From NCBI RefSeq assembly GCF_024502345.1, contig NZ_JALDNN010000001.1: a stretch of 64,000 bases of DNA; one strand, written 5' to 3'. The position numbers and the translations under genes were made by a program. Within the stretch, counting starts at the first letter, position 1, and each line of letters opens with the position of its first letter. This document shows positions 10,774 to 28,424 of this stretch, one piece after another. The notes under the pieces were generated by a model. That model was not told the origin of the DNA, did not search any database, and worked only from the letters and a program-made list of their open reading frames with translations. The DNA is from Escherichia coli (GTDB lineage Bacteria > Pseudomonadota > Gammaproteobacteria > Enterobacterales > Enterobacteriaceae).

Positions 10774-13296
10774 ATGCTACAGATAATTGGTGCGTTAATT
10801 TTACTGGTAATCGGTTTTGTTATTATAAAAGCGTTGTTTAAGGCATCTCTCAATATTCTAGGTGTGATATTAGGATTGGGTGCATTGATTGTTGCAGGCC
10901 CACCTTTATTGGCGGGCTATATTGTAGAGCGCGTAACCTATGCGCTTCACTCACGTTGGCTGCTGGGTGTACCTCTTGCCATAGCAGGAATGGTGATTAG
11001 CTTTATGTGGGGACTTGATGGTAAACATATTGCCTACGAAGCTTATTCATTTGATTCAATGAAGTTTATTTTAACCGCTGCATTTGCCAGTGGCCTGCTT
11101 GCAGTACCTGTACAAACCAAGGCTATTCTACAAAACGGGCTTATACCAGCCGATATCAATGCCAAACTTAAAGAGTATTATTGCTGTTTTTATACATCTT
11201 ACTTTTTGATGGCCTGCTCTGCGGCTACACCGTTTATAGCCTGGCAATATAATATCTCATCTTCACTGATGTGGTGGACAGGATTGCTATACTGGATAGC
11301 AGCCTTACTGACACAGTTCTATGCGGCAAACCAAATTCAGGAACTCAAGAAGTTAACTAATGCCATCAATACAGGGTTAAATGAGCAAAAAGCGATCAAT
11401 AACCAACTTTGGCTGACGGAACTAAAAGAAGGAAGTAACCTCTCAGCAGAATTCGTAGAGACTATCTATCTTAAGTTGGTCTCACAGCATATTTTTCAGG
11501 GCGATACTCGAGAGCAGGATCTGGCTGGTGAAAACTGGCTTTTAAATGATGCCTGGTATGAAAGAAAGATGGCTGAATTTAATGAGCAGTTAAACAGTAA
11601 AATTGTACACTCATCAGATGAGCTAAGAAGCCTTTTTGGTAATAGGCTGAATTTACCCTCTGCTGCGAATGATGATCTCCTGAACCGTTATCTTGATGGT
11701 GGGAACTATTATTCTTTTTCGGATGGTCGAAAATTTGTCTCGTTTCACTATGTCGACGAGCTTTGTACCTGCACTTCATGCGGTTTGAGCGAGATTAAAA
11801 ACGCAAAACACCAGGACGGTTGTGGGAGCCAGGAATGGTATTGCTCTGATATTTGCCGGGAAACGGAAAAACTCTGCATTGAAATTCACAAGCGACCACA
11901 GGCTGAATTTATTTCCAGTGCAGCAACAAACGGTCTGATTCTCATGACGCTCCCGGAGGCCTGGAATACTAACGAAAAAATGTTTGCAGTGGGAGGACAA
12001 GGACATGGTTTTGCAGCCGAACGGGGAAATCATCTTACTGACAAAATCCAACTAAAAGATGCACATATTCTCGGTGATGATAATGCGAAAAATGGTGCAG
12101 ACAGGCTGGTTAACGGTTCAGAGATTCAGACCAAATACTGTGCAACCGCTGCACGTAGCGTCGGTGCTGGTTTTGACGGACAAAACGGTAATTATCGCTA
12201 TTATGACAGTAACGGAACCCCAATGCAGTTAGAGGTTCCGAAAGACCAGTATTCGAAAGCGCTTGAAACGATGGAGAACAAAATTCGCGATGGCAAAGTC
12301 CCCGGCGTTACCGATCCTGCAGAAGCCACAAAACTTGTACGTCAGGGACACCTGACTTATAGCCAGGCACAAAACATTACTAAGTTTGGCACGTTCGAAT
12401 CTATCACTTACGACATTGCGGAAGGATCTATCATCAGCCTCGCAGCTGGAGGTATCAGCTTCGGTCTGACAGCTTCTATTTTCTACCTCAATACCGGCGA
12501 TCGTAAGGCTGCGTTGCAAACGGCAGCAATACAGGCAGGTAAAACATTTACCCGCACACTGACAGTTTATGTGACGGTACAGCAATTACACCGTATCAGT
12601 GCCGTTCAGGGGTTACTTAAAAATATTGATTTTGCCGCTGCCAGCCCGACAGTTCGTAATGCGCTTCAACAGGGAGTCGGAGCTAACAATCTCAACTCCC
12701 TTAACAAGATGATGCGTGGCACACTGGTTACCTCTTTCGCACTGGTCGCCGTGACCACTGGTCCGGATATGATCAAAATGGTGCGAGGTCGTATTTCTGG
12801 GGCACAGTTTATAAAAAATCTGGCAGTTACTTCATCTGGTGTGGCTGGGGGTGCAATTGGTTCTATTGCTGGCGGAATGATGCTTAGTCCATTAGGTCCT
12901 TTCGGTGCTTTAGCAGGACGCGCAGCTGGTGGCTTGTTAGGCGGTATGATTGCCACAGCGATTTCCAAAAAAATAGCGGGTGCACTGGTTGAAGACGACC
13001 GAGTAAAAGTGCTGGCTCTCATCCAGGAACAGGTTACATGGCTTGCAACAAGTTTCATGCTTACAGCACACGAACTTGAAAACCTGAACGCGAATCTGGC
13101 AACAGTAATTGACCAAAAAACCCTGGAGGTTATCTTCGCCGCAAAAGAGCAAGACCGAGCAACGGCCAATATGCTGATTAAACCACTTGTAGTAAGTGTG
13201 GTTAAGCAACGACCGGTCCTGAGCTATGAACAATCGCAAATCTGCGAAATGGTCGATCAGCTTGATACATCGGTTTCATTATCTGCTGTTGCATAA
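10774..13296 (+). CDS. gene C: hypothetical 840-aa polytopic membrane protein with a Cys cluster and C-terminal Gly-zipper region
   Basis: About six predicted TM helices in residues 1-190; Cys cluster CTCTSCGLSEIKNAKHQDGCGSQEWYCSDIC; C-terminal GGAIGSIAGGMMLSPLGPFGALAGRAAGGLLGGMIATAIS; RBS AAGGA upstream. Confidence 0.65.
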   Translation: MLQIIGALILLVIGFVIIKALFKASLNILGVILGLGALIVAGPPLLAGYIVERVTYALHSRWLLGVPLAIAGMVISFMWGLDGKHIAYEAYSFDSMKFILTAAFASGLLAVPVQTKAILQNGLIPADINAKLKEYYCCFYTSYFLMACSAATPFIAWQYNISSSLMWWTGLLYWIAALLTQFYAANQIQELKKLTNAINTGLNEQKAINNQLWLTELKEGSNLSAEFVETIYLKLVSQHIFQGDTREQDLAGENWLLNDAWYERKMAEFNEQLNSKIVHSSDELRSLFGNRLNLPSAANDDLLNRYLDGGNYYSFSDGRKFVSFHYVDELCTCTSCGLSEIKNAKHQDGCGSQEWYCSDICRETEKLCIEIHKRPQAEFISSAATNGLILMTLPEAWNTNEKMFAVGGQGHGFAAERGNHLTDKIQLKDAHILGDDNAKNGADRLVNGSEIQTKYCATAARSVGAGFDGQNGNYRYYDSNGTPMQLEVPKDQYSKALETMENKIRDGKVPGVTDPAEATKLVRQGHLTYSQAQNITKFGTFESITYDIAEGSIISLAAGGISFGLTASIFYLNTGDRKAALQTAAIQAGKTFTRTLTVYVTVQQLHRISAVQGLLKNIDFAAASPTVRNALQQGVGANNLNSLNKMMRGTLVTSFALVAVTTGPDMIKMVRGRISGAQFIKNLAVTSSGVAGGAIGSIAGGMMLSPLGPFGALAGRAAGGLLGGMIATAISKKIAGALVEDDRVKVLALIQEQVTWLATSFMLTAHELENLNANLATVIDQKTLEVIFAAKEQDRATANMLIKPLVVSVVKQRPVLSYEQSQICEMVDQLDTSVSLSAVA

Positions 13297-13886: not shown

Positions 13887-16800
13887 CGCCTCTTTGATAA
13901 CGCATCATACTGCCAGCGGAATAACTCTCTTCGTCAATACGGCTCTCGCTGTACGCTTACCCATCTAGAGAGGTTTCAGGTGATTATCGATGTCAGAAGA
14001 CTGAATGATTCAGTCGTTTACTTTGAGATAGATCAGAGGTTTTTCACTACCTGTGTTCATCACATGGCTACGAATAGTAGAATCCAAGCATAAATTAACG
14101 CTTAGAAAAGTTGAGCTCATGAGATTCCACCCTGAAGGGCCTTCCATACCCGATATCCTCTTAGAACGCTGTGATACAGGTCGAGTTGTATTTCTCTGTG
14201 GCGCTGGGGTTTCATTACCTTCAGGGATGCCAAGCTTTGTAGAGCTTACCCAGCATGTAATTGAATACTTTGACCCACCACACGATTCAGAAATCATGGC
14301 AGCATTTCGCCCATGGCTTCACGACCAATCTTCAGCTAATGTCCCTCTCGACCAAATTTTCAACCTCCTACATCTGGAATATGGCAAGGATGAGGTGAAT
14401 GCTTTGGTATCAAAGCGTCTGGGGACTGCAAGAACTGATATAGAGATTGGACGTGAGCATGCCCTGATTAAAAGAATTTCCTCAAATCAGAGTGGTGTCC
14501 CACAGATTGTCACAACGAACTTTGACCGACTGTTCGAGGATAACCAAGCGCAAGATAATCTAACTCGATATGTGCCGCCAGCTTTCCCAAATCTGAATTT
14601 CGGTTCGACAATTGAGGGAATAACATATCTTCACGGCCGCCTGGTCGACGAAAATGCTGTAAACCATCCTTATGTGCTGAGCAGTGCAGACTTTGGAAGA
14701 GCATATCTTTCAGAAGGATGGGCGACCAATTTTATTAAGCTTCTTCTGGAACGATACATCGTTGTTTTGGTCGGTTATCAGGCAGAAGACCCACCAGTTA
14801 AATACCTCCTTCAGGGTCTCAATCATGATGGCCAGTATGATCGTTCCAGACTTTATGCATTTGATCGCGGCCTTGCCGAGGATATCGAAGCCAAATGGCG
14901 TGACAGAGGAGTTACAGCCATAGCCTATTCCGATCATCCAGCTCTTTGGAAGACTTTGGAAGCATGGGCTGAGCGAGTAGATGATCCACGTCGATGGCGA
15001 GCTTCTATTATCGCTAAAAGCCAGCAAGATCCGAAAGTTCTAGCACCGTATGAACGTGGTCAACTTGCCCATATACTTCGCACTACACAAGGTGCGAAAT
15101 TGTTCTCTGAAGCTGTTCCTCTTCCCCATCCAGAGTGGCTTTGTGTGATGGATGCAAATATTCGGTCAGCCAAACAGAAGAAAAGATACTACGAACTTGA
15201 TGACAATGATGCAGAGACCTTCGATCCACAAGAAGCTTATGGGCTTGATGACGATCTGCAAGATATCGCTGATGATGAACGTAAACGTGGAGTGAGTAAC
15301 GATAATCTCCTTGAATGGCGCGACGAAGATGATAACCCGTCAGATTACCATCGCTTGGCTGGATGTTTGGAGACAATGCCGAAACGATTGAGCCATCTCA
15401 TGGTCTGGTTCTGCAAATCTCTTGATAGCCCCGTGATGGCTTGGTGGGCTATCCGAAAAATCAGTATTCATCCTCTACTACTACAAAATATTGAACGCAA
15501 TATTGAGCATTCAACATCAATCCACAAACGCGCTCGTCAACTGTGGGGCTTAATTCTTGAACATCATAAAGATCCCCGCAATCGTCGTTATGACGTCGAT
15601 TGGTACGACTTAAAAGCTCGAATTACAAAACAAGGCTGGACAGCTGGTGTCTTACGAGAATTTCGTAGGGTAATGACACCCCGATTGGAAAAGAAGTTGC
15701 CGTATGGATTGGGTGAAGTCAGACCGCCAAGCGGCTCCTGGGAGGAAATTCAGTTCAGCGAATTTGGCCAATTTGAAGTTGTGTTCACCGAAAGACATGA
15801 TGACGATTTAGACGTACCTGACAATGTATTACTACAAGTATTTAATGCCTTAGAAGCGCAAATAATAACTGCCTCCGGAATGTTAGAGGATATTGATACG
15901 CACTACTTTCCAAGCCCAAGTTGTTATCCAGAACGTGCGGTTGAAGGAGAAGAACATTTCGCGAAAGGTGCGGAGGTATTAACTTGGTTTGTCCAACTTT
16001 TAGACCGAGTTGTTATGAAGTGGCCAGAATTGGCTAAGGCATACGTAACAACTTGGCCAGTTAAGGAGCCATTTTTCTTCCGAAAGCTTAGACTTTATGC
16101 ATTCAGTAAAAAAGGCGTCTTTGAGGCTGACCGTGTTGCCGAAGAGCTTTTGTCTTTGGATCAAAGTGGATTTTGGGACACAAATATTACCCGCGAACTT
16201 CTTTTTCTGCTCACTGATCGTTGGGAAGAATTCTCGCAAGAAAATCAGAATCGAATTATAGAGCATATATTAACCGGCCCGAACCATTTACTTTATTTGT
16301 CTGAGGAAGACATTCCAAAAGAAAGAGAGATATTAGCAGCTAGATACGCTCGTTATCTCGAACTAAACGGCTGTAAAGTAACCACTATTCATCGTGACCA
16401 ACTAACTGCGATGATTAAAAGAATTCCTGACTGGAATGATGGCTGGGCTACATCTGTTGTCATCAATTGGGGTTCACGGACAGGTTGGGTTCGTACAGAC
16501 GAAAAGCCAGATATAATCTTAGATCTTCCAGCAAACGAAATAATCCCAAAAGTAAAAGAGATACTTAAACGAGAGGATGATAGCTTTACTAGTAGGCAAC
16601 CCTTTGTCGGATTGATAAAAGAAAATCCGCGTAAAGCTTTGTCTGCACTCGCTATTGCAGGGAGAGGCGGTGATTACCCTAAGGAATTTTGGTCGCCAAT
16701 GATAAGTGAGTTACCTATAGATCTTAAACCAAGGGTGAGACGAGTATTCCTGAACCGAATTGTGCGATTGCCAGTTACAGCTTTGGTCGAGTTACGACAT

Positions 16801-17333
16801 ACATTAAGTAACTGGCTTGAACAAAATTTAGCTGCGACTCTTGAATTTGATGAGGATCTCGGGTGGGCAGTTTACGATCATGTCATAGCAGGCATACTGA
16901 GTGGTGGCGCCAGTGCAATACGGAGTAGTTTCGGAGAAGTTATCCGGAATGGAGAAGTTGTAATACAGTCTCGCCGCACGTTCAGTCATGCAATCAATGG
17001 TCCTGTCGGTAAATGTACTCAAGCGCTTTTTCAAGCAATGCCAAGTGAAGAGAAAAAAGCTGGTTCGCTTATTCCTTACTCTATTAAGTCTCGTATTGAA
17101 CATCTTTTTACTGCACCAGGAGAAGGAGCGGACCACGCTATAGCTATAACGTCTCGCAATCTAAATTGGCTAATGTTTGTTGATCCTGCATGGGTAAAGG
17201 AATGGCTTATACCCCTTTTGGATTTAAAACATCCTGCAGCAGAACCAGTATGGAATGGTTATCTTCAGTGCAATGCTATGCCTTCAATTGCAGTAGCTGA
17301 ACTTATTAAACCAGCTTTTCTTAACCTTATCCC

Positions 17334-18390
17334 GGCTTTGTTGAATAAATCAGATTTCGGGTAAGTCTCCCCCGTAGCGGGTTGTGTTTTCAGGCAATAC
17401 GCACGCTTTCAGGCATACCTGCTTTCGTCATTTTGTTCAGCGCTCGTACCAGGGCCATAGCCTCTGCAACCTGACCATCGTAGTCACGCAGTGTCAGTGA
17501 ACCCCCGAACAGCTGTTTTACCCGGTACATCGCCGTTTCCGCTATCGAGCGACGGTTGTAATCTGTTGTCCATTTCCACCGCGCATTACTCCCGGTCATT
17601 CGCTGATTAGCCACTGCACGGTTACGGTCTGCATATTCACCGGGCCAGTAACCCGCACCTTTTCGGGGAGGGATAAGCGCGCTGATTTTCTTACGCCGCA
17701 GTTCATCGTGACATAGCCGGGTATCGTAAGCGCCATCGGCGGCGGCTGACCTGATTTTCCGGTGGGTTTGCCGGATTAACCCGGGGAAGGCCTCTGAGTC
17801 CGTAACGTTGTTCAGCGACAGGTCAGCGCAGATGATTTCATGTGTTTTACTGTCAACGGCGAGATGCAGCTTACGCCAGATACGGCGGCGTTCCTGGCCA
17901 TGCTTTTTGACTTTCCACTCGCCTTCACCGAAGACCTTCAGCCCGGTGGAATCAATTACCAGGTGTGCGATTTCACCCCGGGTGGGCGTTTTGAAACTGA
18001 CATTAACCGACTTTGCCCGCCTGCTGACACAGCTGTAATCCGGGCAGCGTAGCGGAACGTTCATCAGAGAAAAAATGGAATCAATAAAGCCCTGCGCAGC
18101 GCGCAGGGTCAGCCTGAATACGCGTTTAATGACCAGCACAGTCGTGATGGCAAGGTCAGAATAGCGCTGAGGTCTGCCTCGTGAAGAAGGTGTTGCTGAC
18201 TCATACCAGGCCTGAATAGCTTCATCATCCAGCCAGAAAGTTATGGAGCCACGGTTGATGAGGGCTTTATTGTAGGTGGGCCAGTTGGTGATTTTGAACT
18301 TTTGCTTTGCCACGGAACGGTCTGCGTTGTCGGGAAGATACGTGATCTGATCCTTCAACTCAGCAAAAGTTCGATTTATTCAACAAAGCC
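17334..18390 (-). mobile_element. IS903-group element copy B (inverted), 9-bp TSD CCTTATCCC
   Basis: Terminal IRs at 17334..17351 and 18373..18390; CCTTATCCC at 17325..17333 and 18391..18399. Confidence 0.92.
17390..18358 (-). CDS. IS903-group transposase (322 aa), identical to copy A
   Basis: Identical translation to 6097..7065. Confidence 0.9.
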   Translation of the reverse strand: MKDQITYLPDNADRSVAKQKFKITNWPTYNKALINRGSITFWLDDEAIQAWYESATPSSRGRPQRYSDLAITTVLVIKRVFRLTLRAAQGFIDSIFSLMNVPLRCPDYSCVSRRAKSVNVSFKTPTRGEIAHLVIDSTGLKVFGEGEWKVKKHGQERRRIWRKLHLAVDSKTHEIICADLSLNNVTDSEAFPGLIRQTHRKIRSAAADGAYDTRLCHDELRRKKISALIPPRKGAGYWPGEYADRNRAVANQRMTGSNARWKWTTDYNRRSIAETAMYRVKQLFGGSLTLRDYDGQVAEAMALVRALNKMTKAGMPESVRIA

Positions 18391-19152
18391 CCTTATCCCT
18401 TGGATCGAATCTCTTTCTTGGGAAAAAGATTATTCAGTTCGAGCTTCGCAATGGCTTGGCTTAATGAGAATGTTTCACCCTGATGAGCCCTCCAGTCCTT
18501 CCAGGAATGAAATGCGCTCCATATTACGAGCATTATCTGACGAGGCTCGAAATCGTTTTATTTCCTGGTTAGGATTGGTCGGGCAGAAAAACGAGAGTGG
18601 CTGGGTTAAGTATGTGATCCCATTAATCAGAGAGGACTGGCCCAAAGAACGCCAATATAGAACCACGAGCTCTGTAAAAGCATGGATTGGTTTACTTGAC
18701 GATACTGGCGATAAGTTTCCGGAGGTTTACGATTCAGTAAAAACATACTTAGTACCAATCGAGACAATTGATCATTTGTTCTACAGATTCACTCGGGAGC
18801 TCGGTGGTAAAGGAGCAATTGCAGCTATTTTTCCAGAAACCACGCTTGATTTAATGGACAAAATAACACCACTGATATTCACGCGTACATCAGGAGAGCT
18901 GCAGAAGATTCTTGAGCTAATTGAAGATACAGATACAAGTCTGATCAAGGATTCTCGGTACTTACGGCTTATTGCACTGGTTGAGAAAAATTAGCATTTA
19001 TGGTTTTTTACCGTTGTTGATTACTCAGCAACACTTTTCGACATGCCGTAGCGCTTATCGCCTGTTCTTGACTAAGATGAGAAGCAGGCGTTAAAGTTTG
19101 GTTAAAGGAGAACCTCTAACCATTCCTTCTGGAAGAAATAATCTTTGGAGTA

Positions 19153-19881
19153 TTATTGAAATTGCTCAAATATACCATGCAACCCAATAAATTTTATTTT
19201 TAGTGCAGGATCATGCCTTAGAACAGTCTCAAGTGAGTTCCGCTCATAAATTATTGATTGTGCTTGTATTGAGCCGTTCCATGAAGGCAAAAGCAGTAAA
19301 GCAGATGTTTCCAAATCAATACCCCACCAATCGTTAACATAGCAATTTAAAAAATCAACAAGAGCCTTAATCGCAATAAAAGCATCTTTTTCGGTATATG
19401 TTTCAGGATCGAGGGATATACCTGATATATTACTTTTAGCTTGCTCGGAATTAATATTAGACTGGTGTTGATAAGCAATTTTTCCTTCACCCGGTTTAGT
19501 TTCTATTGTATCAGTGAAAATTTTAATCTTAGGATGCACCAATGCATTTCGTTGTGCTATTAATTCTTTTATTATTTGTGTTTGAGTGGTTCCACGAGGT
19601 AAAGACATGTCTTTATGCCATTGAAGAGTATAGTCAAATTTATCAAGTGAAGAGAACCTGTCAATTTGATCTTTTAACTTTTGCGTTATTTCTATAGAAG
19701 ATAAAAATGAGTTAGCTGCAGCCTCAATAGCGTAGTTAATTGAAAGTACACTTGATTTGGCAAGTGTTTTTTTGATGTGTGATTTTTTTGTTGCAGCTGA
19801 TAATTCATAAAGAGTTATTGCATCAGAAAAAAGCTCAAAAAAGCTGTTCTTGGTTATTTCAACTTTTCTTTTCACACGCAA
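19153..19881 (-). CDS. hypothetical 242-aa protein with HEPN-like R-x4-H motif (ELIAQRNALVHP)
   Basis: Motif read from the translation; last gene of an AT-rich three-gene minus-strand cluster. Confidence 0.55.
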   Translation of the reverse strand: MRVKRKVEITKNSFFELFSDAITLYELSAATKKSHIKKTLAKSSVLSINYAIEAAANSFLSSIEITQKLKDQIDRFSSLDKFDYTLQWHKDMSLPRGTTQTQIIKELIAQRNALVHPKIKIFTDTIETKPGEGKIAYQHQSNINSEQAKSNISGISLDPETYTEKDAFIAIKALVDFLNCYVNDWWGIDLETSALLLLPSWNGSIQAQSIIYERNSLETVLRHDPALKIKFIGLHGIFEQFQ

Positions 19882-19965
19882 CCCTCTGCATAAAAAAATA
19901 AAATCATATAGACAGAATACAATTTCCTATAATCTTTATATTCTACTAATTGTGGATATAAATGG

Positions 19966-21437
19966 CTATCGAGAATAAGAACTGGGTTTAGGAAAACCAC
20001 CTCTGACGACGACAACAACAATTGCAACTTGAGATTGACCTGTTGGATGAGTGAATACTTCAATATCATCCTCTATTACTCCCACCGGCGCTGATTTTGA
20101 CGTTGATTCCAGAACAACCAAAATACCGATACGCTTACCTAATCCAATGGCATAAGCTGCTGTTTGATCGAAATATTTTTGAAAATCCTTGGGAAAAAGA
20201 ACCTTATTATTTTCAACTTTTAGTTCTATCGAAATGTCTTCAAATGTGAGATCCGTTATCCCGCCAGCAGCCTCTGGATGGCCTTGTAATTTCTCGCCAA
20301 TCTCATTCCTACTTCTAAGCATTTCGGCTATTTTACGCTGAAATTTTTGCTCTGATGTGCCAGCAATAAATAAACTAGCTTTAAGAGCTTGTGCTGCAAC
20401 ATTTCCTAAGCCGCCAAGTATAACCATTGTATTAGCAATGTCATCTGAGTGTAATCCAGGGAAAGCTCGTAATATGTTACGAATTTTTATAAGATGCCTA
20501 TCGACGTTTGAAAATCCAGTTAATGGAGCTTGAGCGGAATCACTCCCTTCAAGTAGTAAGCGCCTATGTCCTACGATAGCAATATTTTGGCAATTACTTA
20601 AATTGTCAAACTCGGCAGCATATAGGAATTCGTAAGGTCTCGAGCCAAATGAATTTGCCACTTCCAAGACGACACGACCGATCCCCTTCAGTGTGAAGGG
20701 GCCTTCCCCCTCTGGTTTCTCAAATCTAAAATCAGGCAACCAGTCTCGCTCACGAGCATCAATTGTCACTGGCTTTAATGAGAGGAAATTTGCACTTTTT
20801 GGCCAATTTGAAACCCTGACCTCTATGTTAAGGTCATAAGCCGTACCCGGCTTAAGATAATTCCATTGCTGAGCTGGTTCCCCATCAATATCAAACTTTA
20901 GAAATGCAACTGTCGATTCTTGTGTTTTATTCTCTTTTGTCCCTTTACTAGATATTCCTTGCCTAATCCCCTCAATATTTTTATCGCGAAGATTTGCGAA
21001 TAAGAGTAGTGGCAATGACCAGCTTGTTAACTGGTCTTGTATTTGTTTTAATGAATCTAATTTACTGATTGAACGGACTTGCTCTATAAATTCATTAAAT
21101 TGTTTGTTCTCCGAGAGACTCGTCGTCATGTCGATCTCTGATGCTTTTAATTGTGCTGAATTTAAAAACCTTTGAGCATCAGTCTCAGCATTACGTATAG
21201 CATGTTTCCACTCAGCTAGAGTTACAAATATAGTCATTGCTATATAATATGCACGATATTGATCTTCAACATATCCCTGACCGAGCTCATCGAGCGTTTC
21301 ATTGAGCTTTTGACACGCTTCTTTAAGTTTCACCAAGTCATTCGGAATGGACTTGAGTGCACCATCCAACGCTGCTGCAATCTCAACCCTCGGAGAAAAA
21401 GCTTGGCGGAAAATCTCGAAATTTGGCTCGTTCTTCA
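19966..21437 (-). CDS. hypothetical about 490-aa protein with possible C-terminal PD-(D/E)xK nuclease-like motif (ITDLTFEDISIELK); start uncertain (21437 or 21480)
   Basis: ORF overlaps the upstream 857-aa gene by 55 bp or more; D...E-x-K pattern near the C-terminus. Confidence 0.5.
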
Positions 21438-23956
21438 TATTCTTTCTCCAACTCAGCCGTAAGACCATTCCATTTTTCAATTAAGTCATTATAGGGTTCG
21501 CAAACACTTATGGCATGTTCAATGCTAGCTGCTTCTGTAACTAAAGCAGCCTTAAGTTTCCATTGTGTATTTCTTTCATCATTTGGAATTTCTTCCAGTA
21601 GTTCCTTTAAACAAACATTTGCAGTTACGTTATCACCACACTTGCTTAACGCAGCCACGTACACTAATGCTTCAATAAATTGTTGAGGTTTAAATGGTTT
21701 CAGAGCATTGAATGCTTTTTGGAGATCGTCTTTACAATTTCGAAGCTCATCATGTGGCGCTCTTAATATCACTGAGATGCAGTCATCAATAGAAATACTG
21801 CGAGTATACTCATCCTGAATTGCTTTGAGTGCGACTTTGACAAAACCGGGAATATCATCAAAATGAAAACGCAATCGATTGATAGCATCATAAAGTGCAC
21901 TTCCTTCTAAAATTAATAATATATTAGAAAGAAGCAATCCAATTTTCCCCTTTCTCTCTTCATCTGATAAGCAAAGAGAAGAAAAAACGTCAATGCATTC
22001 TACAATGAAATTATCTTTTTTATCTTGTTGAATATAATAGCAAATTAGATTCCATAGCCGGGATCTCACAAGTCCCCGTTTCTCCTCAGGAAAAGATCTA
22101 CGGCTCAAAGCGCGAACAGCATACTGATGCACCATAACATATTGATCTAATAGCAAGACTGAATATGCTTCGAAGAATAAATCTGGGAAATTCTTCACTA
22201 AATCATAGGGAACATTTTCCCACGCTTGTACGGCACGTGCTCGAATCAATGTACTCTCATCCATAAGAGCACGATACCAATCGGAGAGCACTAGTGTTAG
22301 GCTGTCAATACCAGTTAATAACTTAGAAACATGGGCAATCATGTTCCCACGCATTTGAGTTTGTTCTTCTGGTAAGCTTCTATAGAGATGAAGAAAATCA
22401 TCGATTCCTTCACTCCCTCTAGATTTAGCTCCAATCGCAGCCCATTCAATCAATGCACCCTGTAAGCCATCAATAGCATTACGCTTATTACTTTTATCTA
22501 AATGATCTAGAAAACTCTCATTTATTTCTATGATTTTTTCTTTATTCAACGCCTCAAATTTCTCGCTTAGCGTTGCAGCCGCTCCGATCAAATCGTCAAA
22601 ATTATCAACTGCAAGCTCAGCAAATTCGTCCCAAGAGTGTCTAAAGAATTGTCCTGCATCATCCATGCTATCCTCTGGATTTTCCACAGCAGCCCAGAGC
22701 AAACGCCTAAAAGCTATTTTTTGTGTCTTTCCTGTTTTACTTTTTTTTCTATAGTTATTTCGCAGTACAGATCTGTAAGCTCTATTGGCCTCATGTCTCC
22801 CAATATCATCTTTGTCAGCAAGATAGGATTGAATAACTTTATCGCTTTCATCGGGAAATCTATCTAAGTATTTCGTAGCAGCCTCCCGAAGAAAGAAAAG
22901 AATGCTGCTATCTCTCCGCTCCTCCGGGAGTAGAGTCCGTCGACGCATCAGCTTAGCAAATATACTTCTAATATGTCTTAGAAGCAGCTCATCATCATCC
23001 GATGCAATAATTATCTCAATAGCAAATTGAAATTTTCCCCGGTGAGTATCTTTTATGTATTCATCAACAACATCACAGATATCAGCTTGTCTTTTTTTAA
23101 AAAGTGACTGAATGGGGCCTTTATTAAGTACTTTTCGCTCAAATGTGCCAATCATCATTCCAGGAGGAGATTCAACAGCCATTCTAACAAAGTGGTAAAG
23201 GACTTTTAAGAAATCATCTTCAGATAGATTCTCTGCTTCCAAGAGGATTGCTTCTATAGCTAGTGGACAATATTCGAAGTTGTTTATTAAATATACTGAA
23301 ATTGCCAGTTTTTCCGCTTGTGATAATTCAGTTCTTATTAAAGCTTTTGCTGCTGGCATTGAATATGGTAATTTCTCATGTAACACTGCAGGCAACAAGT
23401 GTTCAATTATTTTACTTGTAAATGTCTCAGGTGCCAGATTAGCAAGTTGTTCCAAACGGGGATCGTTGTTCTCTATATCCTCTTGATCGAGTTCATCAAG
23501 CAAATCAAGCACAAACGTTTCTTCTAGAGTAAGTGAAAGACGTAATACTGCTCGTTCTTGTTGTCTATTGAGCTGCTTCTGCTTTCTCTGCCTTTCTTCT
23601 TCTTTGCGAGCCAAATTTCGTTCTTCGGCAGATTTTTCTCTTGGGCCTACAAACTCTAAAATATTGGGAAATCCCACCGGAACCCGTTGATTACAATGTT
23701 TACAGTTCTGTTTATAGAAGCTGTAAACCGAGTCTTCCAGCAGCCAGCTAAGCATTGAACTTTGCTTAACAAATTTGCATTGAACTCCCATGTGACCAAT
23801 GGGTAACCCTGTTTCAGCCTCAATCATGCCTCTCCCCTCTGATCGAATGAATTCAGAGTGAGAACACCAGTTACTAAGTAGGTGTACAGCACGGAGATTT
23901 CGTTGACCAGCTTCGATTGCCTCTTCAAATCTTTTTTTATCTTCAAAATCATCCAT
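21383..23956 (-). CDS. hypothetical 857-aa protein with N-terminal Cys/His cluster and long helical repeat region
   Basis: N-terminal ...NWCSHSEF...HMGVQCKF...CKHCNQ...; very AT-rich coding region; no Walker A seen. Confidence 0.6.
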   Translation of the reverse strand: MDDFEDKKRFEEAIEAGQRNLRAVHLLSNWCSHSEFIRSEGRGMIEAETGLPIGHMGVQCKFVKQSSMLSWLLEDSVYSFYKQNCKHCNQRVPVGFPNILEFVGPREKSAEERNLARKEEERQRKQKQLNRQQERAVLRLSLTLEETFVLDLLDELDQEDIENNDPRLEQLANLAPETFTSKIIEHLLPAVLHEKLPYSMPAAKALIRTELSQAEKLAISVYLINNFEYCPLAIEAILLEAENLSEDDFLKVLYHFVRMAVESPPGMMIGTFERKVLNKGPIQSLFKKRQADICDVVDEYIKDTHRGKFQFAIEIIIASDDDELLLRHIRSIFAKLMRRRTLLPEERRDSSILFFLREAATKYLDRFPDESDKVIQSYLADKDDIGRHEANRAYRSVLRNNYRKKSKTGKTQKIAFRRLLWAAVENPEDSMDDAGQFFRHSWDEFAELAVDNFDDLIGAAATLSEKFEALNKEKIIEINESFLDHLDKSNKRNAIDGLQGALIEWAAIGAKSRGSEGIDDFLHLYRSLPEEQTQMRGNMIAHVSKLLTGIDSLTLVLSDWYRALMDESTLIRARAVQAWENVPYDLVKNFPDLFFEAYSVLLLDQYVMVHQYAVRALSRRSFPEEKRGLVRSRLWNLICYYIQQDKKDNFIVECIDVFSSLCLSDEERKGKIGLLLSNILLILEGSALYDAINRLRFHFDDIPGFVKVALKAIQDEYTRSISIDDCISVILRAPHDELRNCKDDLQKAFNALKPFKPQQFIEALVYVAALSKCGDNVTANVCLKELLEEIPNDERNTQWKLKAALVTEAASIEHAISVCEPYNDLIEKWNGLTAELEKEYEERAKFRDFPPSFFSEG

Positions 23957-25331
23957 TTAGATAACACCCTTATAAGGAACATGTACTCATCTAAAATGCT
24001 GTTACCGGATTATTATACCTAAAACAATGAATGCTGTGTATTATGAAATGTGATATAAGTCAATTAGTTACATATAAAAACCAACTCACATCCAAAAGGA
24101 TAGTATTTCGAGGTTTGTAGCATCATTAAATGTGAACTTATTTATCGCCCCCTCAAGTTAACTAATAAATAAGTTATAATTTACATATACTTCTGGAATT
24201 TAGAAACCTTATATCTAATAGTTGAGTAAGTTAATAATCAACATGAGTGTGATTCATAAAAAAAATAATTATTATTTTCAGCCCCTCCATTATGGAGGAG
24301 CAATAATAGTATAGTTTTCCTGTATTCCTAACGATCCAGTTAGGCTTAGAGAAATCTAATTATGAAGCACTCCTGAGAGCAACCCTTCCAACTTTATCAA
24401 TATAATCCGCATACCACTGCATCATCTCTCTCCTGCCTTCCAAATACAGCGCATGGTTGTACGTCCCGCGAATCGCATTCTTATCGACATGCGCAAGCTG
24501 GGTTTCAATCCATGCGGTATTGAACCCTTCCTCATGCAAAATCGTACTCATCGTGTGGCGGAAACCATGCCCCGTTACCTTCCCCGTGTACCCAATCCGC
24601 TTAAACACCTGATTAATACTCGCTTCGCTCATTGTTTTGCGGGGATCATTCCTCCCAGGAAACACCAGAGGATATTGCCCAGACATCACTTTGAGCTGCT
24701 GTACGATCTCCAGCGCTTGGGTAGAGAGGGGCACCAGGTGAGGCCGTTTCATCTTCATGCGCTCTGCAGGTATTTCCCACACCGCTTTTTCAAGATCAAA
24801 CTCACTCCAGAAAGCACCTCGAAGCTCACCGGTGCGAACCCCCGTAAGGATCAGCAAACGTGCGGCAAGAACAACCAGCGGGCTGCCTGTATAGCCAGAA
24901 AGAGCTTTAAAGAAATCTGGTAACTCCTCAACGGTAAGGAAGGGATAATGCTTCGATTCATGCCCTGACATCGCGCTGGTTAGATCCGCAGCCGGATTGT
25001 ATTCCGCACGACCGGTAACTATGGCGTAGCGAAAGACTTCGCTGCAGCGCTGGCGAACTTTCTTGGCCTTCTCTGTCGCACCACGGCTTTCCATTCGACG
25101 CAGTACATTCAACAGAACAAGAGGCTTAATTTCATTGACTGGCTGCTGACCGATATAGGGAAAAATATCTTTATTTAAAGCTTCGATAATGTCCGATGCA
25201 TACCCTTCTGACCATCTGCTCACCTTCGTACCGTGCCACTCAAGCGCCACAGACTGGAACGTATTATGATCTTACCCAGCAATAGTGGACACGCGGCTAA
25301 GTGAGTAAACTCTCAGTCAGAGGTGACTCAC

Positions 25332-25631
25332 ATGACAAAAACAGTATCAACCAGTAAAAAACCCCGTAAACAGCATTCGCCTGAATTTCGCAGTGAAGCC
25401 CTGAAGCTTGCTGAACGCATCGGTGTTACTGCCGCAGCCCGTGAACTCAGCCTGTATGAATCACAGCTCTACAACTGGCGCAGTAAACAGCAAAATCAGC
25501 AGACGTCTTCTGAACGTGAACTGGAGATGTCTACCGAGATTGCACGTCTCAAACGCCAGCTGGCAGAACGGGATGAAGAGCTGGCTATCCTCCAAAAGGC
25601 CGCGACATACTTCGCGAAGCGCCTGAAATGA
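25332..25631 (+). CDS. insE: IS3 OrfA (InsE)
   Basis: [54 protein letters not shown]... matches recalled IS3 InsE. Confidence 0.9.
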
Positions 25632-26494
25632 AGTATGTCTTTATTGAAAAACATCAGGCTGAGTTCAGCATCAAAGCAATGTGCCGCGTGCTCCGGGTGG
25701 CCCGCAGCGGCTGGTATACGTGGTGTCAGCGGCGGACAAGGATAAGCACGCGTCAGCAGTTCCGCCAACACTGCGACAGCGTTGTCCTCGCGGCTTTTAC
25801 CCGGTCAAAACAGCGTTACGGTGCCCCACGCCTGACGGATGAACTGCGTGCTCAGGGTTACCCCTTTAACGTAAAAACCGTGGCGGCAAGCCTGCGCCGT
25901 CAGGGACTGAGGGCAAAGGCCTCCCGGAAGTTCAGCCCGGTCAGCTACCGCGCACACGGCCTGCCTGTGTCAGAAAATCTGTTGGAGCAGGATTTTTACG
26001 CCAGTGGCCCGAACCAGAAGTGGGCAGGAGACATCACGTACTTACGTACAGATGAAGGCTGGCTGTATCTGGCAGTGGTCATTGACCTGTGGTCACGTGC
26101 CGTTATTGGCTGGTCAATGTCGCCACGCATGACGGCGCAACTGGCCTGCGATGCCCTGCAGATGGCGCTGTGGCGGCGTAAGAGGCCCCGGAACGTTATC
26201 GTTCACACGGACCGTGGAGGCCAGTACTGTTCAGCAGATTATCAGGCGCAACTGAAGCGGCATAATCTGCGTGGAAGTATGAGCGCAAAAGGTTGCTGCT
26301 ACGATAATGCCTGCGTGGAAAGCTTCTTTCATTCGCTGAAAGTGGAATGTATCCATGGAGAACACTTTATCAGCCGGGAAATAATGCGGGCAACGGTATT
26401 TAATTATATCGAATGTGATTACAATCGGTGGCGGCGGCACAGTTGGTGTGGCGGCCTCAGTCCGGAACAATTTGAAAACCAGAACCTCGCTTAG
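25628..26494 (+). CDS. insF: IS3 OrfB (InsF) transposase, DDE domain
   Basis: [32 protein letters not shown]... 288 aa; overlaps orfA in the -1 frame as in IS3-family elements. Confidence 0.9.
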
Positions 26495-26980
26495 GTCTGT
26501 GTCCATATTACGTGGGTAGGATCATTATTGAGCTGCACATCACGAACCAGCTTTTCTTCTTTCTTGGCAAACGATGGATCGATACCCTCGGCCAGCTTTT
26601 TCTTGGCTTCATCGCGTAGTGCCCTCGCTTGAGCAAGGGACACTGCCGGATAAACGCCAAAAGCCATACGCTTCTCTTTTCCATTGAAGCGATATTTCAT
26701 TCGCCAGTATCGAGAACCAGAGGGAACGACTTCAAGATACAAACCAGCACCATCTGCCAGCTTATAGGCTTTCTCTCTGGGTTTAGCTGCATCTACCTGT
26801 CGCGCATTTAGCTTCATTGGGGGCATCTCCCTGGACCGAACACAGAATGCCCCCACTTATGCCCCCAACTGTAACTTGATTCCGGTTGAGTCCAGTTGAT
26901 AACAGGAGATAAAATACGGGCTAGAAACCGCAGTATACGGGCTTTTAGTTGATTTCGGTAGACTTGGGAAGAGTTTGAAA

Positions 26981-27056
26981 TGGTGCCGATAATAGGAGTC
27001 GAACCTACGACCTTCGCATTACGAATGCGCTGCTCTACCAACTGAGCTATATCGGC
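26981..27056 (-). tRNA. thrW: tRNA-Thr (anticodon CGU), thrW
   Basis: Reverse complement GCCGATATAGCTCAGTTGGTAGAGCAGCGCATTCGTAATGCGAAGGTCGTAGGTTCGACTCCTATTATCGGCACCA. Confidence 0.9.
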
Positions 27057-27170: not shown

Positions 27171-28424
27171 TTACGCACGAATGGTGTAATCACCAATGCC
27201 GATCCACTTGTAAGTGGTCAGTGCTTCCAGCCCCATTGGGCCACGCGCGTGGAGTTTTTGTGTGCTTACCGCCACTTCCGCACCCAGACCAAACTGGCCG
27301 CCGTCGGTAAAACGCGTAGAGGCGTTAACGTAAACAGCGGACGAATCCACTTCGTTAACAAAACGCTGGGCGTTGCGCATATCGCGGGTCAGGATCGCAT
27401 CGGAGTGTTGTGTGCCGTGTTCACGAATATGGGCGATGGCATCGTCAAGATCGCTGACGATTTTGACGTTCAAATCTAATGACAGAAACTCATCGTCATA
27501 CTCTTCGGCTTTAACAGCAACCACCTTCGCAGGGCCTGCCTGCAACTGCGCCAGTGCAGCTGCATCTGCGTGTAATGTCACGCCGCTTTCCGCCATTTGT
27601 TTGCTTAATGCGGGCAGGAAGCTATCGGCGATGTTTTTATTCACCAGCAACGTTTCAACCGTATTACATGTGCTCGGACGCTGAGTTTTCGCGTTGACGA
27701 TCACTTTTAATGCTTCAGCGATCTCTACACTTTCATCAACGTAAATATGGCATACGCCTATACCACCTGTGATCACCGGGATTGTCGACTGTTCACGGCA
27801 CAGTTTATGCAAACCAGCGCCACCACGCGGGATCAGCATGTCGATGTATTTATCCATACGCAGCATTTCACTGACCAGCGCACGGTCAGGATTATCAATC
27901 GCCTGCACGGCACCCGCCGGTAAGCCGCAGGATTTCAGGGCGTCCTGAATCACCGCCACCGTTGCAGCGTTAGTGCGACACGTTTCTTTGCCACCGCGCA
28001 GGATCACCGCATTACCGGTTTTCAGGCACAGCGAAGCGACATCAACCGTCACGTTCGGGCGCGCTTCATAAATCACGCCAATAACCCCCAGCGGTACGCG
28101 ACGACGCTCAAGACGCAGGCCGCTGTCCAGTACGCCGCCATCGATTACCTGCCCCACCGGATCGGCGAGGTTGCACACCTGACGTACATCGTCGGCAATG
28201 CCTTTCAGCCGTGCGGGCGTCAGTGCCAGACGGTCAAGCATCGCTTCGCCAAGGCCATTGGCACGCGCGTCAGCAACATCCTGGGCGTTAGCGTTGAGGA
28301 TGATTTCGCTTTGTGCTTCCAGTTCATCGGCGATTTTTTCCAGCACGCGATTTTTTTCGCGGCTGGAGAGTTGCGCTAATTTATACGAGGCTTGCTTCGC
28401 GGCAATGCCCATTTGTTCCAGCAT
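27171..28424 (-). CDS. proA: gamma-glutamyl phosphate reductase
   Basis: 417-aa ORF recognised as ProA; synteny thrW-proA-proB. Confidence 0.95.

Follow-up and report, generated by a model that had tools for sequence, protein, structure and literature searches.

The stretch analysed here, 64,000 nucleotides (nt) of the chromosome of Escherichia coli (NCBI RefSeq assembly GCF_024502345.1, contig NZ_JALDNN010000001.1; hereafter the window), contains three closely packed minus-strand genes between positions 19,153 and 23,956. They sit just inside a P4-type integrase gene at the tRNA-Thr/proA site. The reading that we favour, at a probability of about 0.72, is that they represent two independent anti-phage modules, adjacent to each other in a defence island acquired by horizontal transfer: the two-gene system Olokun (oloA and oloB) and a solo gene for a protein of the HEPN fold. 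The region is typical of defence islands and reveals neither a new three-gene system nor a new kind of system. The three genes and the spacer in front of the third are as follows:

oloA, 21383-23956, minus strand: 857 amino acids (aa), ATG start; putative large Olokun subunit
oloB, 19966-21438, minus strand: 490 aa (MKNEPNFEIF start); putative Olokun nuclease subunit with a C-terminal PD-(D/E)xK domain
oloB-HEPN spacer, 19876-19965, minus strand: 90 nt; leader of the HEPN gene with its ribosome-binding site
Solo HEPN gene, 19153-19875, minus strand: 240 aa, GTG start; predicted RNase with the motif R109-N-x3-H114

A preliminary description of this DNA, based on its letters and open reading frames (ORFs), had placed three genes here with the strand and spacing that we also find, and two of their starts had to be corrected. 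The longest ORFs would give the middle gene 504 aa (19966-21480) and the third gene 242 aa (19153-19881). The oloB start was moved to 21438, where RefSeq gives a protein of 490 aa in E. coli PSJ-29 and nearly all homologues measure 483–495 aa. For the HEPN gene, the start was set at the GTG at 19875, which lies 7 nt past a GAGGG Shine-Dalgarno sequence and is kept in seven aligned loci; the upstream TTG is not kept. The last 56 nt of the oloA reading frame are shared with the start of oloB, an arrangement that recurs at the same length in related loci where it was measured.

The preliminary description did not recognise the combination as a named system, a view that has to be revised for the first two genes, which can be assigned by sequence similarity to Olokun, a two-gene anti-phage system named in Millman et al. 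2022 (as cited in PMC10121019). OloA matches PADLOC model PDLC03925 (E = 2.9e-77; residues 43–854 against profile positions 17–576 of 596), and OloB matches PDLC03926 (E = 4.8e-58; profile positions 2–551 of 556), with its C-terminus also matching the C-terminus of an LmuA model (3.6e-13). Searches of Pfam, NCBIfam and PDB sequences with OloA returned no match, and the same holds for OloB in Pfam and NCBIfam and for an OloB profile in PDB sequences. Wherever a related locus includes the DNA directly upstream of oloB, an OloA homologue is encoded there. A phage-defence role of oloA and oloB is well supported, in keeping with the abortive-infection modules to which the preliminary description had likened the group; for the third gene it is a predicted role.

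The residues singled out in the two proteins hold up across their families. In OloB, the D...E-x-K pattern noted near the C-terminus corresponds to D396, E405 and K407 (ITDLTF..IELK), all invariant in 21 homologues, and OloB is accordingly classed here, on sequence grounds, as a predicted PD-(D/E)xK nuclease. The large protein had been described as carrying an N-terminal Cys/His cluster and no P-loop: C31, H55, C60, C85 and C88 are invariant in 16 OloA homologues, none of which contains the Walker A pattern [AG]x4GK[ST]. This cluster may bind zinc. In the AlphaFold2 (AF2) model of OloA, residues ~110–847 are all helical, with a predicted local distance difference test score (pLDDT) of ~80–93, and the N-terminal residues 1–105, which hold the cluster, have a pLDDT below 52. 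OloA is ~260 residues longer than the 596-position PADLOC profile, which marks it as a long variant.

OloB has 279 homologous clusters, most of them 64–72% identical to the window protein and spread over several phyla. Identities of 60–71% are found in Geomobilimonas, Marinobacter, Dinoroseobacter, Sulfurospirillum, Sulfuricurvum, Chlorobiaceae and Calditrichia, and the Synechocystis homologue is 67% identical. Comparing E. coli with Chlorobiaceae, Calditrichia, Campylobacterota and Desulfobacterota, we observed identities of ~54–71% for OloB and 58–66% for OloA within this long-OloA subfamily. Such unusual conservation across distant phyla implies recent wide horizontal transfer under strong constraint.

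For the biochemistry of Olokun we relied on the system of Pseudomonas (PfOlokun), which a preprint (bioRxiv 10.1101/2025.07.10.664194) reports to have anti-phage activity and describes as a two-gene operon whose products form a ~278 kDa 2:2 OloA-OloB complex. In the preprint, OloA is described as adaptin-like, the PD-(D/E)xK nuclease domains of OloB are adjacent to each other, and OloA is not among the Walker A-bearing P-loop accessory proteins that it lists. The purified complex degrades DNA of T7, SECphi17 and SPO1 and does not degrade E. coli genomic DNA; plasmid DNA is only nicked. By homology, OloA2-OloB2 complexes would also form from the window proteins, and the paired C-terminal PD-(D/E)xK domains of OloB would cut phage DNA. 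OloA, with its Cys/His module, would then act as the sensor or regulator.

The third protein, which has an invariant R-x4-H motif, is assigned to the HEPN fold because its AF2 model is confident (pLDDT 88.7; predicted template modelling score 0.86), R109 and H114 are invariant, and the motif recurs widely in the family. The preliminary description had pointed to this HEPN signature. Within the sequence R109-N-A-L-V-H114 (240-aa numbering), none of 30 close homologues departs from R109 or H114, and N110 is at least 90% conserved among them; across 50 homologues at 18–54% identity, the only invariant residues are N55, K79, R109 and H114. Of the 147 representatives listed, 142 contain the broader motif R[NHQDS]xxxH, with a position of ~105–115 in the 40 inspected for it. 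A family signature can be written as E51-A-A-A-N55, D-K79-F and R109-N-x2-V-H114, followed by a C-terminal extension of ~120 residues with a beta-hairpin, which is absent from minimal HEPN domains. The motif calls made from the letters alone were thus accurate for all three proteins, and a chance origin of these motifs was ruled out by the invariance of the residues across the families.

This HEPN family is large and poorly covered by existing models. A profile search of 1.84 billion representatives yielded 426 at E <= 1e-3, of which 249 remain at a cut-off of 1e-10; the ~426 representatives stand for clusters built at 50% identity. For the window protein, Pfam, NCBIfam and PADLOC returned nothing significant, and PHROGs was likewise negative for it and for four relatives. 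The best Pfam matches of single members were HEPN_RiboL-PSP (5.8e-3) and HEPN_Apea (5.0e-3). At E <= 0.01, PADLOC models left the window protein and ten distant representatives unmatched apart from two exceptions among the latter, one match to Cas13-ApeA at 1.2e-4 and one weak match to Cas8a. No PDB chain was matched by profiles of the family. Structure comparison with Foldseek gave weak matches to the PDB (E >0.5), the nearest structures including HEPN-MNT toxins, and 52 matches to AFDB50 at E <= 0.001. Many of the latter are proteins of 220–250 aa, and many are automatically annotated as Apea-like, RiboL-PSP, AbiU2-like or pEK499_p136 HEPN; a UniProt entry 98% identical to the window protein is automatically named 'Apea-like HEPN domain-containing protein'. 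A tblastn search of a phage collection with the HEPN protein found nothing, so the gene is not obviously phage-borne. As a separate observation, three family members of 471–476 aa (P0199, P0210 and P0225) have an extra C-terminal half of ~250 aa, for which a Pfam scan of P0199, the only one scanned, gave no match; this half might be a fused sensor domain.

Whether the three genes belong together was addressed by comparing loci: 14 loci with OloB relatives were drawn from 100,044 species genomes, and further loci were added by exact protein look-up. The preliminary description had proposed a three-gene system and suggested a co-occurrence analysis, and its outcome speaks against that proposal. 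The HEPN gene lies 3' of oloB in five of the ~19 OloAB loci with downstream sequence, namely in E. coli, Serratia bockelmannii, S. proteamaculans, Yersinia proxima and one metagenome contig, with OloB 83–97% identical to that of the window. These five triad loci form one clade and therefore amount to roughly one evolutionary event. A HEPN homologue is absent from 14 OloAB loci of many phyla (in the DNA on either side, up to 7 kb and less at contig ends). In eleven of these, OloB is 54–71% identical; the other three are closer, and each has a different gene 3' of oloB: an integrase gene in a Serratia locus (OloB 75%), a bSEFIR gene in a second locus (72%), and another gene in a third, which has Gabija-like genes upstream (78%). 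The triad is not a conserved unit.

Several of these loci have noteworthy neighbours. In the Serratia locus L023, a small HTH_31 gene (4199-4483) lies directly upstream of oloA. The metagenome contig L024 carries, by Pfam, genes for a Gabija-like OLD-family ATPase-TOPRIM protein and a UvrD-type helicase upstream of OloAB (49-3616). On contig L025, a 962-aa bSEFIR/TIR gene with a faint NACHT match (4491-7379) begins 95 nt downstream of oloB.

Conversely, the HEPN gene is found apart from OloAB in at least four contexts, which contradicts the co-inheritance expected of a three-gene system. In a Budviciaceae genome, a homologue at 77% identity lies between genes for Mokosh type II MkoC (E = 0) and a PDC-S20 KAP NTPase; in Alkalimonas, one at 59% shares a small island with a fused PARIS AriAB gene; and Pseudomonas viridiflava has a copy at 41%. 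In Vibrio parahaemolyticus, the homologue (54%) is a cassette in a chromosomal integron array, flanked by attC-like 120-nt repeats (7864-7983 and 8721-8842 of locus L006) that leave no room for a second gene. The same array holds another cassette (1846-2856) whose 336-aa product has a weak HEPN_Swt1 Pfam match, so that it may contain more than one HEPN-type cassette.

The HEPN gene also persists where OloAB has been lost. Enterobacter hormaechei has the same tRNA-Thr island minus the equivalent of window positions 23895-19990, a deletion with its ends near codon 21 of oloA and 24 nt short of the oloB stop, and its HEPN ORF is intact, with 95% protein identity. At the deletion junction ~5 nt are shared, and the sirtuin gene of this island is broken by IS3-family elements. 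The E. hormaechei locus (NZ_CP056156, 48542-65246) is part of a 361-kb record labelled as a plasmid that carries the core genes gpt, frsA, crl, phoE, proB and proA; this record could represent a chromid, or else a piece of chromosome that was mis-assigned.

The solo copies raise the question of what the HEPN protein does by itself. One explanation makes it a toxin whose toxin-antitoxin module would stabilise the island or integron array; a small protein or RNA that escaped annotation would serve as the antitoxin, as happens in HEPN-MNT or type III modules, and the HEPN protein would have no direct role in phage defence. The HEPN-MNT toxins among its nearest solved structures would fit such a function, as would the fact that sedentary integrons commonly hold toxin-antitoxin modules (bioRxiv 10.1101/2024.07.02.601686). 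We nevertheless consider it very unlikely: no MNT or other conserved partner gene adjoins the HEPN gene in any context examined, the Vibrio cassette fits this ORF only, and the solo copies keep company with the dedicated defence genes of Mokosh, PDC-S20 and PARIS. Nor does the window offer an antitoxin RNA or regulator: Rfam and tandem-repeat scans of 18900-24400 produced two chance-level Rfam hits and trivial repeats, and neither tandem repeats nor an Rfam family turned up at the HEPN gene or next to it. The narrower candidate of a HEPN-MNT toxin was rejected, as no MNT gene lies nearby in the window or in ten loci (L002-L011).

The transcription signals of the region allow for both separate and joint expression. 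Two candidate promoters are of interest:

Candidate sigma-70 promoter for oloA-oloB, 24012-24040, minus strand: TACACA-17-TATAAT, 10/12, ~56 nt upstream of the oloA ATG
Promoter-like site for the HEPN gene, 19968..19940, minus strand: TAGCCA-17-TAGAAT, 9/12; starts inside the oloB end, just upstream of the spacer

The first is the best promoter-like match of the region and is a consensus match only; promoter-like matches across the region are no commoner than in shuffled sequence. A promoter and terminator scan found no terminator-like site in the oloB-HEPN spacer, and no small regulator ORF was found in the window between the integrase gene and oloA. The leader of the HEPN gene is conserved among triad loci, and ~70 nt of it are common to the solo Budviciaceae copy and the Yersinia and S. 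proteamaculans triad copies, which indicates that the HEPN gene moves with its own 5' region. Transcription as a single operon, the earlier idea, is possible: all three genes lie on one strand, without a terminator-like site in the spacer. The HEPN gene, for its part, carries a conserved leader of its own and a promoter-like site.

Some of the evidence weighs against our reading of two independent modules. The Enterobacterales triad keeps the same strand and a ~90-nt gap, and the triad is seen in five taxa. On the metagenome triad contig, the flanks differ and a sirtuin gene is lacking. Compared with their window counterparts, the three proteins lose identity in step (97/97/97, 84/88/87 and 80/83/80%), and this parallel divergence, together with the lack of a terminator-like site between oloB and the HEPN gene, makes co-transcription and some cooperation in the clade possible. 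These same observations speak for a true three-component, extended Olokun, in which the HEPN protein is a co-transcribed second effector or accessory subunit and sensing by OloA triggers both DNA and RNA cleavage. Such a system is unlikely in our view. The triad loci, although they span E. coli, two Serratia species, Y. proxima and a metagenome contig without the sirtuin neighbour, probably go back to a single acquisition; OloAB loci as close as 72–78% in OloB have various other genes in the third position; four further contexts, one of them a single-gene cassette, have the HEPN gene on its own; and a precise OloAB deletion has left that gene intact. In addition, the Olokun studied biochemically is a two-gene system that, according to the preprint cited above, was purified as a 2:2 complex and was active on DNA in vitro.

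Further points against the favoured reading concern the functions assigned to the two modules. In the Olokun studied biochemically, OloA is shorter than that of the window, and the mechanism is carried over by homology from a preprint. No Pfam HEPN model matches any member of the HEPN family (30 close and 50 distant homologues) at E <= 0.001, and we infer the RNase activity and defence role of the family from its fold, motif and neighbourhood.

Under the favoured reading of two independent modules, the HEPN gene would have joined the 3' side of oloB once, in the enterobacterial lineage of the island, and may be read through from the oloAB promoter while keeping its own leader. The 240-aa HEPN protein would oligomerise, need no partner gene and have a latent RNase activity; a phage cue would switch this on, and cleavage of tRNA or mRNA would lead to abortive infection, as with HepS. 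We can extend this into a broader and more tentative proposal, for which we would give slightly less than even odds: that the protein founds a widespread solo anti-phage family which senses infection, aborts it by RNA cleavage and travels singly between islands and integron cassettes, and which in enterobacteria is read through from the Olokun promoter to make an additive or synergistic unit targeting both DNA and RNA.

The setting of the genes matches what the preliminary description reported. The GC content is 0.34–0.41 over 19000-24000, compared with 0.50–0.57 on the proA side and 0.42–0.52 on the other, in line with the AT-rich character noted earlier, and the genes do lie between a sirtuin gene and an integrase gene, both of which are split by insertion sequences (IS). 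The tRNA-Thr(CGT) gene (26981-27056), which the integrase gene adjoins, and proA (27171-28424) follow on the right. The two interrupted genes are:

Integrase gene fragments, 24360-25250 and 26491-26856, minus strand: split by an IS3 element with two overlapping transposase ORFs at 25323-26494 (plus strand)
Dsr1-like SIR2 gene fragments, 14053-17364 and 18302-18994, plus strand: split by an IS903-like insertion at 17390-18358 (minus strand)

Since the integrase gene is interrupted by an IS3 element, the island is probably immobilised in the window strain. An intact version of the island is found in E. coli PSJ-29 (NZ_AP027639, 3612239-3617042), where the order on the minus strand is tRNA-Thr, integrase and the 857-aa, 490-aa and 240-aa genes, next to which comes a convergent 1,291-aa SIR2 gene. 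The 5.1 kb region is present at 99.9% identity in 6 of 5,426 complete E. coli genomes, with a fragment in a seventh; all these copies are chromosomal, and the three genes are annotated throughout as 'hypothetical protein'.

The sirtuin gene itself is a divergent relative of Dsr1, because only its N-terminal SIR2 part and its C-terminal end match Dsr1 models; Dsr1 was the sole NCBIfam match of the fragments, at 318 bits against a cut-off of 1400. It is probably inactive in the window strain. In E. coli, Yersinia and both Serratia species it faces the HEPN gene tail to tail, which could mean that the HEPN gene partners the sirtuin gene, for example as a regulator or immunity factor, instead of belonging with Olokun. 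This we regard as highly improbable, given that the metagenome triad has ychF in that place, that no SIR2 gene lies near any solo HEPN copy, and that Dsr1 is known as a single-gene system, as its NCBIfam name supports. The candidate was rejected on the grounds that contexts without SIR2 exist.

Defence-related genes continue further into the island (window 5105-13296). A WYL-domain regulator is encoded at 5105-5983, deeper in the island, and a PDC-M09A remnant lies at 8702-9292. Upstream of this remnant are a second IS903-like copy (6097-7065) and a minus-strand ORF of 354 aa, which we could not identify (7745-8809). The remnant is followed by PDC-M09B (9292-10737; E = 1.7e-213) and then by an 840-aa ORF (10774-13296) that is weakly similar to PDC-M09B.

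Taken as a whole, the interpretation offered in the preliminary description is partly supported. Three 'hypothetical proteins' of seven complete E. coli genomes and of Serratia, Yersinia and Enterobacter can now be labelled as OloA, OloB and a solo HEPN protein. The long-OloA subfamily provides the Cys/His cluster and D396/E405/K407 as targets for mutagenesis, and no PDB structure was matched by its sequences. There is some novelty, and it is limited to the solo HEPN family. Current defence-finder models do not detect it, with Pfam, PADLOC v2 and NCBIfam giving no significant match, and it makes a plausible candidate for a new single-gene system of abortive infection akin to HepS.

HepS, encoded by the prophage Gifsy-1, is a solo HEPN protein of fewer than 250 aa that acts by abortive infection. 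It forms an inactive tetramer, is activated by a siphovirus tail-tip protein and cuts tRNA anticodon loops (PMC13043305), and thereby shows that a lone protein of this kind can combine sensing with the effector function. The window protein resembles it in being a single HEPN protein of fewer than 250 aa with no partner gene and a similarly placed motif (R109-H114 here, R100-H105 in HepS). The two differ in location, the window family occurring in chromosomal islands and integron cassettes and HepS in a prophage. A tblastn search of the phage collection gave no sequence match; that collection includes the LT2 Gifsy-1 record, in which HepS could not be identified. ApeA and the stand-alone HEPN families (Apea-like PF18739, RiboL-PSP PF18735, AbiU2-like and pEK499_p136) belong to the same fold class, but the window family has its own signature and the ~120-residue C-terminal extension. 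Esos, compared by description only, is a HEPN-like single-gene cassette of the V. cholerae chromosomal integron that provides phage defence via growth arrest or death (bioRxiv 10.1101/2024.07.02.601686), and it parallels the V. parahaemolyticus cassette copy of the window HEPN family.

The first two genes are closest to Olokun. Their products fit both models over nearly the full length, the two genes overlap as neighbours on one strand, the PD-(D/E)xK residues are present in OloB, and OloA is large and helical and has no P-loop. They differ from it in the length of OloA (857 aa compared with a 596-position profile) and in the N-terminal Cys/His cluster, of which the accessible text of bioRxiv 10.1101/2025.07.10.664194 makes no mention. 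Also distinctive is the unusual conservation of the window subfamily across Gammaproteobacteria, Alphaproteobacteria, Desulfobacterota, Campylobacterota, Chlorobiaceae, Calditrichia and cyanobacteria. Finally, one enterobacterial clade has the HEPN gene 3' of oloB, whereas the 14 other OloAB loci keep the two-gene composition.

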